Of a DNA stretch of 64,000 nucleotides, positions 23,432-51,398 are shown piece by piece (the first letter of the stretch is position 1; the number at the start of each line of letters is the position of its first letter). The DNA comes from Candidatus Micrarchaeota archaeon (GTDB taxonomy: Archaea > Micrarchaeota > Micrarchaeia > Micrarchaeales > CABMGC01), in NCBI GenBank assembly GCA_021804095.1, contig JAJZKQ010000001.1, forward strand, positions 17,993-81,992, written 5' to 3'. Position numbers and translations under genes: made by a program. The notes beneath the pieces are model-generated. The model saw nothing but the letters and a program-made list of their open reading frames with translations, made no database searches and had not been told where the DNA came from.

Positions 23432-24136
23432 ATGTTAAATATCATTAACGGAGTAACCCAGAGAGAGTTACAGGTTTTAGATATGGAAATTTTAATTAGA
23501 AGGCCTGAAGTAGAAAAATTTAGGTTAGGAGTAGACATAGACAACGTTACTGCGAATTCTTCGCAATTATTAGTAGATATACTAAGAAGGAGAGGATTCT
23601 GGGATATTGAAAGGGACCATATAACAAGGAGGCCTTTCCACGAGTCGCCGAGATTTATGGAGCTTGGAATAAGCAGAGAGGTAGTATCAAAGGTATTGGA
23701 TGGTTTATGGGAATATGAATTCGGCCGTATTGAGTTGATGGATAAAAGAATAGGAAGAATAATCGATGGTCTGCGTGCGAAAAATATAAGCATAGATATA
23801 ATAACTACAATGGGTGCAAGAAACCCTTTAATGCGACCGAATCTTGAAGTATGGCTCCAAGGAAAAGGGATAATTTATGATACAGTAAGCTTTGTCAGTG
23901 GCAATTCCGAGAAAGCAGAAGCGGGGCTACACACTATAGTAGATGATGAAGAAGGACTTGCCAAACTTCTGTCAGCAAAGGGAAAGCCTGGAATAATATA
24001 TGATGCTCCATGGAATAGAAAATTTGTTGAAGATCTCAGGCTTGAAGGTCGTCGAAACCCTTTGATTTACACCGTAAGGAACTGGGAAGAGCTTGGGACG
24101 GTAGTGGAAGAATTGAATAAGGCTTTTAGAAGCTAA
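23432..24136 (+). CDS. HAD-like hydrolase, possibly 5'(3')-deoxyribonucleotidase (NT5C-like)
   Basis: 234 aa. The Asp motif LGVDIDNV fits HAD motif I. Neighbouring genes act in nucleotide metabolism. An alternative start lies at 23483. Confidence 0.45.
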   Translation: MLNIINGVTQRELQVLDMEILIRRPEVEKFRLGVDIDNVTANSSQLLVDILRRRGFWDIERDHITRRPFHESPRFMELGISREVVSKVLDGLWEYEFGRIELMDKRIGRIIDGLRAKNISIDIITTMGARNPLMRPNLEVWLQGKGIIYDTVSFVSGNSEKAEAGLHTIVDDEEGLAKLLSAKGKPGIIYDAPWNRKFVEDLRLEGRRNPLIYTVRNWEELGTVVEELNKAFRS

Positions 24137-35821: not shown

Positions 35822-35913
35822 GGGGTCGTCTGCTAGTCTGGTCAGGCTCTGTGCTTAGGGAGCACATGACCCGAGTTCAAATGGCATGATGCCTGAAAGT
35901 CTCGGCGACCCCG
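35822..35913 (+). tRNA. tRNA with 18-nt insertion in the T-loop; anticodon loop UUAGGGA (formal anticodon AGG, Pro family; isotype provisional)
   Basis: Acceptor GGGGUCG/CGACCCC, anticodon arm UGUGC-UUAGGGA-GCACA. The T stem CCGAG (35871-75) + UUCAAAU is followed by GGCATGATGCCTGAAAGT (35883-35900) before the pairing strand CUCGG (35901-05). D stem is only 3 bp (U10-U25 mismatch). Confidence 0.65.
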
Positions 35914-37462: not shown

Positions 37463-37567
37463 GGGCTTGTAGCGCAACGGCAGCGCGCCTGCATGGCATG
37501 CAGGAGGTTGCGGGTTCAAAAAAAACCTTCCCGTATTGAGAGGTTTATGGAATTCCCGCCAAGTCCA
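37463..37567 (+). tRNA. tRNA-Ala (anticodon GGC) with 33-nt insertion in the T-loop
   Basis: Acceptor GGGCUUG/CAAGUCC with the G3:U70 Ala identity pair. D arm GCGC-AACGGCA-GCGC, anticodon arm CCUGC-AUGGCAU-GCAGG. T stem GCGGG (37510-14) + UUCAAA, then about 33 nt (37521-37553) before U-CCCGC (37554-59). Confidence 0.75.
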
Positions 37568-48654: not shown

Positions 48655-49815
48655 TCAGGGTTGGATCCAGTCTATTTCATAATATTCGGCTTTGCTGTCT
48701 TTTAGTTTTATCTGCTTGATTTTATAGTAGGTTACTGCCGTTTCCCGATCGGCTATTGCAATAACTAGTTCTATTTTTAGGCGCTTGGCTTCCTTTATTG
48801 CACTTGCAAGTTCTGCGCCTCCTATAAATTCTTCTTCGCCGAAGGAGAGCATGGCATATCTTGGAGGATTGTCGTTTGGATTTTCTGAATCTCCAGATCT
48901 TCGATGGTAAAGTATGAAGTCTATTTCTGTCTTTCTGCTGTTTTTTTTGCCAGGAACTGCTAGGATAAACGTCTTCCTTACTGAATGGGCTACCCTTATT
49001 GCCCTCGCCCATTCAGATATTAGTAGGCGCGAGTTTCTTGGAAATACATGTACCACATGCCTTGAGTGCGCCCACTCCCCATTTTCTGCCTTGAATGGCT
49101 TTGCTCCTGGGAAATATATCCTAAAGTGTGTTCCAAACTTGAAGCCCGTCTTTACCACATAGCCATTCTTCCTCCAGTCTTTGTATACAGAATATAATAG
49201 ACCAAATTGGCCATGTCTGCTTTTTAGTTCTCCTATTAGCCTCTTTTTGTTTATATTGGTAAGTCTAAGCTGCCCGTTTTCAATTAAGAACAGTGTTTCA
49301 TATACGTCAAGCTTGTTTAGGTTTCCTCTGTCTGAGGCTTTGTAGGAACCGTATTGTCCGAACCAGAATGACTCGTAGATCTCTTTTGCCTTTTCTGTGC
49401 GGTTTATGACAGTCACAAGATCGGTAATAAAGAAGGTCCCTGAAAAGTGGTACCCGTGGAGGGAGAGTTTTTTTGAAGGATACTCCTTTATAGGATTGGA
49501 ATGGGGCCTTTTGTGCTTGGTCTCCGGTGTCTTTATTATAAGCCCCCTGTCTCTCCAGTCTTTATAAGTAAGGTATTTCGCCATGAACTTCTTTTCTTTC
49601 CAGAATTTTCCGGCAATCTCGTTGAATGATAATTTTGAACCTTTGTAATATATCTCCGCATTTCTCACATCTGCAAGATATAACGCTTCGAATATTGAGA
49701 GCTGTGTAGGATTTCCTTTCTTAGGTTTTCCTAGAAATCCTCTTTCCAGTATATCTTTTGTAGATTGGTCTTCTGCGGTTATTTTTTTCCTTGAATGGTA
49801 ATTTAGGACTATCAT
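48655..49815 (-). CDS. endA: tRNA-splicing endonuclease, multi-unit single polypeptide
   Basis: 386 aa. One complete catalytic unit (YSVYKDWRKNGYVVKTGFKFGTHFRIY...HSRHVVHV...RVAHSVRKTFILAV). There is also an N-terminal partial unit (LSIFEALYLA...YLTYKDWRDRGLIIKT) and a C-terminal extra segment (YAMLSFGEEEFIGGAELASAIKEAKRLKIELVIAIAD). Confidence 0.85.
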   Translation of the reverse strand: MIVLNYHSRKKITAEDQSTKDILERGFLGKPKKGNPTQLSIFEALYLADVRNAEIYYKGSKLSFNEIAGKFWKEKKFMAKYLTYKDWRDRGLIIKTPETKHKRPHSNPIKEYPSKKLSLHGYHFSGTFFITDLVTVINRTEKAKEIYESFWFGQYGSYKASDRGNLNKLDVYETLFLIENGQLRLTNINKKRLIGELKSRHGQFGLLYSVYKDWRKNGYVVKTGFKFGTHFRIYFPGAKPFKAENGEWAHSRHVVHVFPRNSRLLISEWARAIRVAHSVRKTFILAVPGKKNSRKTEIDFILYHRRSGDSENPNDNPPRYAMLSFGEEEFIGGAELASAIKEAKRLKIELVIAIADRETAVTYYKIKQIKLKDSKAEYYEIDWIQP

Positions 49816-49871
49816 CTAAACGTCTGTATTGGTTTTTTCTTGCTTTTATATTTATTGTGTGCAGGCCTGTT

Positions 49872-50567
49872 TGTCTGTTTTGAGATAAAGTGTTTTTTAA
49901 ATAGGCATGTGGTGTATGCCTGCTGCCTTGAATCAGATAGGAGATCGGATAGGTTGACTATCATAAATATAAATAATGTTTTTCCATATCTCCTTGTGCT
50001 TCTGCAATGGCAAGTAATAAAGAGGGCAAAAACCTCGATATCAGAAAAAACTCCGATTATGTCTTGAGGCTTAGGAAGGCAAGAAGAATAGTAGGCTTAG
50101 TTATGGGAGTGAGCCTCAGCATTTTTATAATAATAGCGGCGCTCGCAGTGCTGAATGAGGGTGTCATCAACTTCCTACACATAATATACTCAATAAACCT
50201 CTATTATTATGGCGCTGCGTGTCTGTTTTGAGATAAAGTGTTTTTTAAATAGGCATGTGGTGTATGCCTGCTGCCTTGAATCAGATAGGAGATCGGATAG
50301 GTTGACTATCATAAATATAAATAATGTTTTTCCATATCTCCTTGTGCTTCTGCAATGGCAAGTAATAAAGAGGGCAAAAACCTCGATATCAGAAAAAACT
50401 CCGATTATGTCTTGAGGCTTAGGAAGGCAAGAAGAATAGTAGGCTTAGTTATGGGAGTGAGCCTCAGCATTTTTATAATAATAGCGGCGCTCGCAGTGCT
50501 GAATGAGGGTGTCATCAACTTCCTACACATAATATACTCAATAAACCTCTATTATTATGGCGCTGCG
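49872..50567. repeat. Perfect tandem direct duplication, 2 x 348 bp
   Basis: 49872-50219 and 50220-50567 read identically by eye. The ORF track confirms this with identical peptides (49840/50209 frames; 50007/50355 frames share the first 71 aa). Confidence 0.9.
50007..50231 (+). pseudogene. Truncated duplicate of the 5' end of the downstream membrane-protein gene
   Basis: 74 aa. The first 71 aa are identical to the N-terminus of ORF 50355..51398. It then reads 3 codons into repeat copy 2 and stops. Confidence 0.6.
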
Positions 50568-51398
50568 TTTGTTGTCTTGTTTGCAGGTTATCTTCTACGT
50601 TTTCCTAAATGGGAAAGATATCTGAAATCTCTTAAAATCAAGATAAGAAGATGGGATAATTTCATAATATACCTTTCAATGTATTCGATGGACATAACCC
50701 CGGGAAGATGGGGAAGGGGAGTGGTTTCTTATACAATAAACAGGCTTACTGGGAGCAGGTTTGCAGTTACATTCCCCGCGGTAGTCGCAGACATATTTAC
50801 AGATTTTGTGGGCTTCGGGGCCGTTGCGATATTTTTTGCTTTTTTTGTGCATAGATATTTTGTGCTCTCTGTTGTGATAACAGGCATACTTCTCCTTCCT
50901 TTCCTCTTTTTGTATTACAAACGGCCATTCGACTATATGAGGAAGAAGCTTTCGAGATTTCGTTTTCTCAGAAGTTTCTGGAATGTCGGGGAACTCTATT
51001 TTAAGGAGAATAATAAACTAGGAAAGTTTGACTATCTGTATTCAATGATATTTACCATACCCTCGGTGATCCTGAACGGTATTGCTCTCTTTTTTGTCAT
51101 ACTTGCTTTTGGCATACACCTTCAGATTGGGGAACTTCCTGTTGTAATATTCATATTCTCCTCTTCGCTTCTCTTCGGCATAATAACCGGAGCCCCGGCT
51201 ACGCTTGGGGTCACTGACGCCCTTCTTATAGGATATCTTGTATTTTTCTTTCCAAACTTGGGAATTACCTTCGGGGTCGCAGCGGCTATAACAATATTCT
51301 TCAGAATAGTAAGTGTCTGGTTTGTACAAGGCTTCGGTTCTGCTGCGCTTTTTTACAGCATGAGGCATTGGAAATTACCTAAAGCTCAAAGTTCATGA
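50355..51398 (+). CDS. Flippase-like / lysylphosphatidylglycerol-synthase TM-region family (UPF0104) membrane protein
   Basis: 347 aa polytopic protein. The pattern YLLRFPKWERYL...YSMDITPGRWGRGVVSY fits the UPF0104 family. The assignment is tentative. Confidence 0.6.
   Translation: MASNKEGKNLDIRKNSDYVLRLRKARRIVGLVMGVSLSIFIIIAALAVLNEGVINFLHIIYSINLYYYGAAFVVLFAGYLLRFPKWERYLKSLKIKIRRWDNFIIYLSMYSMDITPGRWGRGVVSYTINRLTGSRFAVTFPAVVADIFTDFVGFGAVAIFFAFFVHRYFVLSVVITGILLLPFLFLYYKRPFDYMRKKLSRFRFLRSFWNVGELYFKENNKLGKFDYLYSMIFTIPSVILNGIALFFVILAFGIHLQIGELPVVIFIFSSSLLFGIITGAPATLGVTDALLIGYLVFFFPNLGITFGVAAAITIFFRIVSVWFVQGFGSAALFYSMRHWKLPKAQSS

Follow-up and report, generated by a model that had tools for sequence, protein, structure and literature searches.

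The endA gene described here, from a Micrarchaeota archaeon, almost certainly codes for an archaeal RNA-splicing endonuclease (EndA, tRNA-intron lyase) of the epsilon2 type, namely for its epsilon protomer. The protein is orthologous over its full length to the EndA of the same type from Candidatus Micrarchaeum acidiphilum ARMAN-2 and is not a variant of it: compared with the ARMAN-2 enzyme, no unit has been gained, lost or reordered. This "fourth" type of EndA was discovered in 2011 (Fujishima et al. 2011, PMC3239211); its crystal structure followed in 2012 (Hirata et al. 2012, PMC3488258), and the structure of its complex with RNA in 2025 (Miyata et al. 2025, PMC12397907). The enzyme type being already known and crystallised, and the gene a plain orthologue, the finding is not new.

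Unit architecture and functional residues

The gene lies in the window, the whole 64-kb stretch of DNA that was analysed, as an ATG-to-stop ORF of 386 residues on the minus strand (Table 1), as the original prediction had it; the stop codon is the complement of 48655-48657. All sequence strings quoted in that prediction were found in the translation, with Y234 in FRIY, H250 in AHSRH and K281 in SVRK. Its estimate of about twice the length of a homotetramer subunit also agrees with the protein, which is ~2.2 times as long as the alpha4 enzyme 1a79 (a chain of 171 residues). A Pfam domain parse recovered both expected families: PF01974, the catalytic C-terminal domain (E=2.7e-29, three stretches, best 206-290), and PF02778, the N-terminal domain (E=4.2e-15, two stretches, best 10-67). 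Among NCBIfam models, TIGR00324 (endA) matched the protein over its cut-off (117 vs 59.6 bits), and beta-subunit models matched residues 319-372 weakly and below threshold. Within the 64-kb window, tblastn revealed no further sequence resembling EndA.

The outstanding match among solved structures was the ARMAN-2 EndA (4fz2 and 9w2k), aligned by phmmer with E=1e-143 over query residues 3-386 on chain residues 4-387. The two proteins are 58% identical (222/382), and all units and linkers map one to one. For the pairwise mapping, the ARMAN-2 sequence was rebuilt from the phmmer alignment, and the unit limits in ARMAN-2 (alphaN 2-97, linker 1 98-125, linker 2 289-300) were taken from its crystal structure (PMC3488258). 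The protein accordingly has the order alphaN-linker 1-alpha-linker 2-betaC within a single chain of the ~385-390 residues that characterise the epsilon2 type. The three parts that had been recognised by eye match the ARMAN-2 crystallographic units by alignment (residues 3-95, 124-287 and 300-386), and of the two options originally proposed, member or variant of the three-unit ARMAN EndA, the protein is a plain member on the strength of its E-value, its identity, the superposition of its predicted fold and the conservation of its functional residues.

The alphaN unit contains the N-terminal-domain fold followed by the first helix and strand of the C-domain (YLTYKDWRDRGLIIKT) and is without the catalytic triad. 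Linker 1 is poorly conserved, with 7 of 28 residues identical to ARMAN-2. Profile-profile comparison with hhalign matched alphaN residues 81-95 to the start of the catalytic C-subdomain (probability 94%), where a YxxYKDWRxxG helix is clearly repeated. The matches of alphaN 15-50 to the alpha N-subdomain (probability 63%) and of betaC to the alpha C-subdomain (probability 28%) were weak. Since these internal comparisons are weak, the unit assignment rests on the crystal-structure mapping and not on internal repeats.

Table 1. Features of the endonuclease gene and of its predicted substrates (window coordinates)
Feature	Coordinates	Strand	Evidence
endA gene, epsilon-type (alphaN-alpha-betaC) RNA-splicing endonuclease	48655..49815	-	ORF, Pfam, PDB match, model
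alphaN unit, residues 3-95	49531..49809	-	mapped from ARMAN-2 2-97; best PF02778 stretch 10-67
Linker 1, residues 96-123	49447..49530	-	mapped from ARMAN-2 98-125
Catalytic alpha unit, residues 124-287	48955..49446	-	residue mapping to ARMAN-2
ARMAN-specific loop (ASL), residues 156-166	49318..49350	-	pairwise mapping to ARMAN-2
Linker 2, residues 288-299	48919..48954	-	mapped from ARMAN-2 289-300
betaC structural unit, residues 300-386	48658..48918	-	mapping to ARMAN-2; NCBIfam beta-subunit matches 319-372
Pre-tRNA-Pro(AGG), predicted substrate 1	35822..35913	+	anchored scan; ARAGORN after in-silico splicing
Pre-tRNA-Ala(GGC), predicted substrate 2	37463..37567	+	Rfam partial match, anchored scan; ARAGORN after in-silico splicing

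The residues on which function depends are well established in ARMAN-2. Mutagenesis identified Y236, H251 and K282 as the catalytic triad (PMC3239211, PMC3488258, PMC12397907), and R275 and W384 clamp the first bulged base (PMC3488258, PMC12397907). The ARMAN-specific loop (ASL, residues 158-168), in which K161 and later Y160 were found to be essential, is responsible for broad specificity (PMC3488258, PMC12397907). D357 and E359 of the L10 loop form salt bridges with K228 and R234 of a basic pocket (PMC3488258), and the K224E and D357A mutants are inactive (PMC3488258, PMC12397907). Ten counterparts examined individually in the pairwise mapping (K159, K226, R232, Y234, H250, R274, K281, D356, E358 and W383) were identical to ARMAN-2, and the same ten were invariant in an alignment of 30 homologues (56-84% identity, mean column identity 71%). 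Also invariant among the 30 were Y158, K222 and S251. Of these, Y158 and K222, which lay outside the individual check, likewise agree with the ARMAN-2 residues, and S251 is the counterpart of the RNA-contacting S252 of ARMAN-2.

All residues with a role demonstrated in ARMAN-2, by mutagenesis or in the RNA co-crystal, are thus conserved in the protein. The Tyr/His/Lys triad occurs once, in the middle unit (Y234, H250, K281), where PF01974 also has its best stretch. An ASL with the Tyr-Lys pair (Y158 and K159, equivalent to ARMAN-2 Y160/K161) lies in the alpha N-subdomain, the acidic L10 loop (D356/E358) is accompanied by the basic pocket (K222/K226/R232), and R274 and W383 supply the Arg and Trp of the bulge clamp. 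The ASL reads GSYKASDRGNL here and GTYKVSEHGNL in ARMAN-2 (7/11 identical), and the loop at 238-246 has one residue more than in ARMAN-2. With four of the 11 ASL positions different and this second loop longer, the two enzymes might not share exactly the same range of substrates.

T-loop introns in two tRNA genes

Five tRNA genes were found in the window, three without introns and two with T-loop introns. The latter lie 11-14 kb from endA, in keeping with the earlier claim that such tRNAs share the window with the endonuclease. ARAGORN at default settings called the three intron-less genes (Glu-UUC, Leu-GAG and Met-CAU) and missed both intron-bearing ones. Rfam returned a partial tRNA match at 37470-37534, within the tRNA-Ala gene, that spans model positions 8-63 and has a 9-nt T-loop insertion, and left the tRNA-Pro gene unmatched; apart from tRNAs, everything that an E-value scan with Rfam matched across the whole window fell below threshold and is probably due to chance. 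Both oversized-T-loop genes were found by a scan anchored on G53-TTC together with perfect T and acceptor stems. Because such a scan can miss other intron positions and imperfect stems, two intron-bearing tRNAs is a minimum.

A first scan of all stems gave 880 chance matches and was discarded for the anchored scan, and ARAGORN with introns allowed gave nothing new at its default threshold and 89 mostly absurd calls at -ps80, which were discarded. A BHB-aware scan of the window and 83 endA loci (600 kb), the loci spanning ~3 kb each side of endA and being uninformative on intron conservation in relatives, produced 29 raw candidates vs 50 in shuffled sequence. Among the 29, only the tRNA-Pro and tRNA-Ala genes of the window passed ARAGORN after splicing.

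Both introns are located between tRNA positions 59 and 60. The intron of the ARMAN-2 pre-tRNA-Cys, which the ARMAN-2 enzyme cleaves in vitro (PMC3239211), occupies the same position, and the ARMAN-2 pre-tRNA-Pro(GGG) has two introns, one of them at 59/60. The tRNA-Pro(AGG) intron is 18 nt long (35882-35899). The 25 nt between its T-stem strands read UUCA-AAU-GGCA-UGA-UGCC-UGAA-AGU, in which U54-A57 and the intronic UGAA form a 4-bp central helix between the 3-nt bulges AAU and AGU, and the T-stem and GGCA/UGCC form the outer helices, giving a strict hBHBh' motif (3-4-3) with no mismatch. Removal of the intron by a cut after the second nucleotide of each bulge leaves the T-loop UUCAAAU. The tRNA-Ala(GGC) gene, which carries the G3:U70 identity pair, has an intron of 33 nt (37521-37553) within a near-strict BHB. 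Here the central helix is UUCA:UGGA (one G.U), the 3' bulge is AUU, and the 5' bulge AAA is followed by an A.A mismatch and then by the outer helix AAACCU:AGGUUU. Once exactly these introns are spliced in silico, ARAGORN calls tRNA-Pro(agg) and tRNA-Ala(ggc).

The BHB structures of both pre-tRNAs were built by hand, with standard pairs at all paired positions. In the isolated Pro T-arm, the BHB fold lies 0.3 kcal/mol from the MFE (-11.1 vs -11.4 kcal/mol), and in the isolated Ala T-arm it is 2.9 kcal/mol off the MFE. For the two full pre-tRNAs, the hand-built structures reached -31.6 and -33.6 kcal/mol vs unconstrained MFEs of -40.0 and -38.3 kcal/mol, respectively, and unconstrained MFE folding of the full pre-tRNAs did not return a cloverleaf with BHB. 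As tRNAs often misfold in silico, this mismatch was not counted against the BHB. The bulge topology and the cleavage rule were those of the canonical 37/38 case. In the co-crystal, the bond at the 3' splice site is cut between bulge nucleotides two and three (PMC12397907), consistent with the rule used.

The original prediction went further in holding that non-canonical intron positions require broad specificity, and in this it did not stand: what separates the enzyme types is relaxed-motif cleavage (PMC6379350). Canonical and relaxed motifs are both found at many tRNA positions, and among the types (alpha-beta)2 and epsilon2 alone remove relaxed motifs (hBH, HBh') efficiently (PMC6379350). 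Since both window introns are strict or near-strict BHB, broad specificity is not demanded by them alone. The enzyme could thus be a genuine epsilon2 EndA while any archaeal EndA could cut these two introns, the breadth conferred by the ASL not being their cause, and we give this reading an even chance. It draws on the mismatch-free 3-4-3 hBHBh' of the tRNA-Pro intron, on the tRNA-Ala intron having a single G.U pair and a single A.A mismatch at the 5' bulge as its only deviations, and on the enzyme types being distinguished by efficient relaxed-motif cleavage, not by intron position (PMC6379350). However, deletion of the ASL or mutation of Y160/K161 in ARMAN-2 also impairs cleavage of strict BHB (PMC3488258, PMC12397907), so the loop is important to the ARMAN-2 enzyme whatever the substrate; the A.A mismatch may render the motif of pre-tRNA-Ala effectively relaxed; and beyond the five tRNA genes seen in the window, relaxed motifs may be present elsewhere in the genome, as they are in that of ARMAN-2 (PMC3239211). 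Strict and near-strict introns in the window temper the usual argument from non-canonical position to broad specificity.

Predicted fold, other endonuclease types and distribution

An AlphaFold2 monomer model built on the 30-homologue alignment had a mean pLDDT of 84.9 and a pTM of 0.82, and its sole stretch of very low confidence was 159-163, the tip of the ASL. In a Foldseek comparison with the PDB, the model superposed on the epsilon2 (ARMAN-2) structures 4fz2_A and 9w2k_B with TM 0.93 (rmsd 2.4 and 2.3 A, respectively). The best non-epsilon structure was the fused M. kandleri enzyme 5x89 (TM 0.53), the A. fulgidus alpha'2 structures 2gjw, 1r11, 1rlv and 1r0v gave TM 0.41-0.53, and the alpha4 and alpha subunits 1a79 and 3p1z_B a TM (TMq) of about 0.35. 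Sequence alignment gave the same picture: in the phmmer search of the PDB, other solved EndAs matched the catalytic repeat only (roughly 130-300, E 1e-26 or worse), and the match to the three-unit ARMAN-2 enzyme alone ran end to end. The protein also differs from the alpha4 type, a single subunit of ~170-180 aa, in its 386 aa, of which 1a79 covers 162-288 only, and from (alpha-beta)2 enzymes, whose alpha and beta lie on separate genes, in having both units in one ORF.

There is next to no chance that the protein is a homodimeric EndA of the ordinary two-repeat alpha'2 type, known from Archaeoglobus and Thermoplasma, with extra sequence added. Alpha'2 chains are broadly similar in length (289-313 aa), and like the protein studied here they are single chains with one catalytic and one structural C-domain; however, their significant phmmer alignment is confined to residues 158-287. 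The weak additional pieces are non-collinear, query 341-378 falling on A. fulgidus 108-146, upstream of the catalytic repeat, and their TM-scores reach only about half the scale against 0.93 for the epsilon structure. The two collinear tandem repeats of alpha'2, structural then catalytic, are thus absent from the protein. The non-collinear pieces agree with the published order of the epsilon units, which is permuted relative to alpha2 (PMC3239211). Alpha'2 identity, the outcome that would have spoken against the original prediction, was refuted on these grounds: alignment limited to 158-287, a non-collinear betaC match and a TM of ~0.5.

The epsilon2 enzyme is widespread over Micrarchaeota MAGs, in hundreds of species genomes. 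An identical 386-aa protein is already in databases (P0001; sources NCBI, ENA and Logan), and besides it a protein database contains more than 120 homologues of full length (380-406 aa, 56-84% identity); those that carry a name are "tRNA-intron lyase" from MAGs of Micrarchaeota, Micrarchaeia or Micrarchaeaceae. When one genome was scanned for each GTDB species, 578 stretches proved to encode a relative; the best 80 of the 578 cover approximately residues 1-386 at 54-73% identity and come nearly all from Candidatus Micrarchaeota MAGs. A few records are labelled Saccharimonadales, Acidiferrales or Marsarchaeota, labels that are probably binning or labelling errors. Contig DAHWVP010000085.1 (assembly GCA_027351965.1) is 98.9-99.3% identical to the window. 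That the ORF arose as an artefact of assembly or gene fusion, or as a pseudogene in decay, joining separate alpha and beta genes, is a negligible prospect: a 348-bp tandem duplication missing from two other assemblies adjoins endA, but it starts at 49872, outside the ORF, three assemblies independent of one another (NCBI, ENA and Logan) carry the identical 386-aa ORF, the more than 120 homologues are of equal length and fully covered, and the 30 aligned homologues keep all key residues invariant at 71% mean column identity.

The neighbours of endA are housekeeping genes, encoding an FKBP-type isomerase, a membrane protein of the LPG_synthase_TM family, a TP_methylase-family protein, RadA, a class-I Glx-tRNA synthetase and a PRPP synthetase. 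There is no operon logic tying them to splicing.

Proposed mechanism and comparison with known systems

We infer the dimerisation, activity and substrate range of the enzyme from its 58%-identical ARMAN-2 orthologue, with the conserved interface residues as the basis for dimerisation. By this analogy, two epsilon protomers would homodimerise, the betaC L10 loop (D356/E358) of each entering the basic pocket (K222/K226/R232) in the alpha unit of its partner, and the homodimer would have the usual four-unit-like body and, within it, two active sites. Each of these would cut one 3-nt BHB bulge past nucleotide two and leave a 2',3'-cyclic phosphate behind, with Y234 as the likely general base, H250 as the likely general acid, and K281 and S251 stabilising the transition state. 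R274 and W383 of the partner protomer would clamp the first bulged base. Y158 and K159 of the ASL may hold the backbone at the scissile phosphate, an arrangement that allows the ARMAN-2 enzyme to cleave relaxed motifs as well. In the window, pre-tRNA-Pro(AGG) and pre-tRNA-Ala(GGC) with their 59/60 introns are the likely substrates; in each, T-loop nucleotides 54-57 are predicted to pair with the intron's 3' part as the central 4-bp helix. An RNA ligase would then join the exons.

A broader reading combines several points and is, as a whole, tentative and rather doubtful. The epsilon2 type may be an ancestral, class-wide trait of Micrarchaeia and not a peculiarity of ARMAN-1 and ARMAN-2, passed on jointly with a fixed hot spot for introns at 59/60. 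There U54-U55-C56-A57, bases conserved universally in the T-loop, would serve as one strand of the central helix, paired with intronic UGAA or UGGA, such that any intron ending in UGRA-NN might be tolerable, and the lineage would decode Pro with an A34 tRNA, earlier noted only for ARMAN-4 and ARMAN-5. The EndA gene itself matters little beyond annotation, being a clear orthologue already in public databases. The tRNA genes have a practical consequence: standard tRNA finders miss genes with 59/60 introns, and the tRNA complements of such MAGs are therefore under-counted.

Among known enzymes, the alpha'2 EndAs of A. fulgidus (1r0v/2gjw) and T. acidophilum (2ohc) resemble the protein in having a single-chain protomer, their homodimer having two active sites, and in the catalytic C-domain (E about 1e-20 over 158-287). 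Unlike it, they carry the structural repeat first, whereas the structural C-domain comes last here, and they are without an ASL, have an Arg/Arg clamp and show strict-BHB specificity only (PMC3488258). The (alpha-beta)2 EndAs of Crenarchaeota and Nanoarchaeum (A. pernix 3p1z, N. equitans 3iey) share a catalytic alpha and a structural beta with L10, a Trp replacing Arg in the clamp (PMC3488258), and a lineage-specific loop with an essential Lys near the active site, K44 of the CSL corresponding to K161 of the ASL in ARMAN-2. The CSL and ASL are unrelated in sequence and were acquired independently (PMC3488258), and broad specificity is common to the (alpha-beta)2 and ARMAN-2-type epsilon2 enzymes (PMC3488258, PMC6379350). 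In contrast to (alpha-beta)2, alpha and beta are fused in the protein described here, an extra alphaN unit is present, and the TMq is ~0.35.

The closest known systems are the ARMAN-2 epsilon2 EndA/VSEN (EET89679; 4fz2, 9w2k) and its ARMAN-1 homologue. The protein belongs to a different species and is 42% diverged from that of ARMAN-2, with linker 1 25% identical, and the tRNA-Pro with a T-loop intron here is AGG with one intron, whereas that of ARMAN-2 is GGG with two (53/54 and 59/60). Otherwise the two agree in length (386 aa here vs 387 aa), unit order, catalytic triad, the Tyr-Lys of the ASL, the Arg/Trp clamp, and L10 with its pocket, and both genomes contain tRNA genes with 59/60 T-loop introns.

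Surroundings of the endA start

The region directly upstream of endA carries a tandem direct duplication whose two copies are 99% identical to each other. Each copy comprises the 5′ end (~70 codons) of the neighbouring LPG_synthase_TM-family gene and the shared intergenic region, and the duplication creates a truncated additional ORF. In L001 and L002, two further assemblies of this population, the segment occurs as a single copy. The duplication could be a genuine recent event or an assembly artefact. A 50-aa ORF, found in public gene calls on near-identical contigs, overlaps the start codon of endA by 4 nt, has no Pfam match and covers an A/T-rich promoter-like stretch, AATAAATATAAAAG, ~20–35 nt upstream of the endA ATG; it may be a spurious gene call.

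Features of the window
Feature	Position	Strand	Remark
CRISPR-DR47 match (Rfam)	23582–23613	+	27.8 bits, gathering score 39, E=0.65
tRNA-Pro(AGG)	35822–35913	+	T-loop intron
Anticodon AGG	35856–35858	+	within tRNA-Pro(AGG)
tRNA-Ala(GGC)	37463–37567	+	T-loop intron
50-aa ORF	49812–49964	-	L001 4173–4325
Duplication, ~348 bp per copy	49872–50220, 50220–50568		directly upstream of endA
Truncated ORF	50007–50231

Epsilon-type EndA in MAGs labelled bacterial

EndA is an archaeal/eukaryotic enzyme. Full-length epsilon-type genes were found on contigs of MAGs labelled as bacterial (loci L005, DATJMH010000031.1, and L031, DATLRT010000004.1; also protein P0067), the labels being Candidatus Saccharimonadales bacterium, Candidatus Acidiferrales bacterium and Candidatus Aquilonibacter sp. 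Mis-binning of Micrarchaeota contigs into bacterial MAGs is the most likely explanation.

Intron-bearing tRNA genes

Neither intron-bearing tRNA gene was detected by ARAGORN in default mode, and Rfam at the gathering threshold recovered only part of one of the two. Standard annotation tools probably under-count the tRNA genes of Micrarchaeota MAGs. The Rfam scan of the window also returned one copy of a below-threshold CRISPR-DR47 match, probably a chance hit.

The D-stem of tRNA-Pro(AGG) has just three pairs, one of them G·U, and a U10·U25 mismatch. The wobble base of this tRNA is A34, which prompts the question whether inosine is formed, or decoding is unusual, in this lineage. In Fujishima et al. 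2011 (PMC3239211), A34 in tRNA-Pro/Leu is described for ARMAN-4/-5 alone, and the ARMAN-2 anticodon is GGG.
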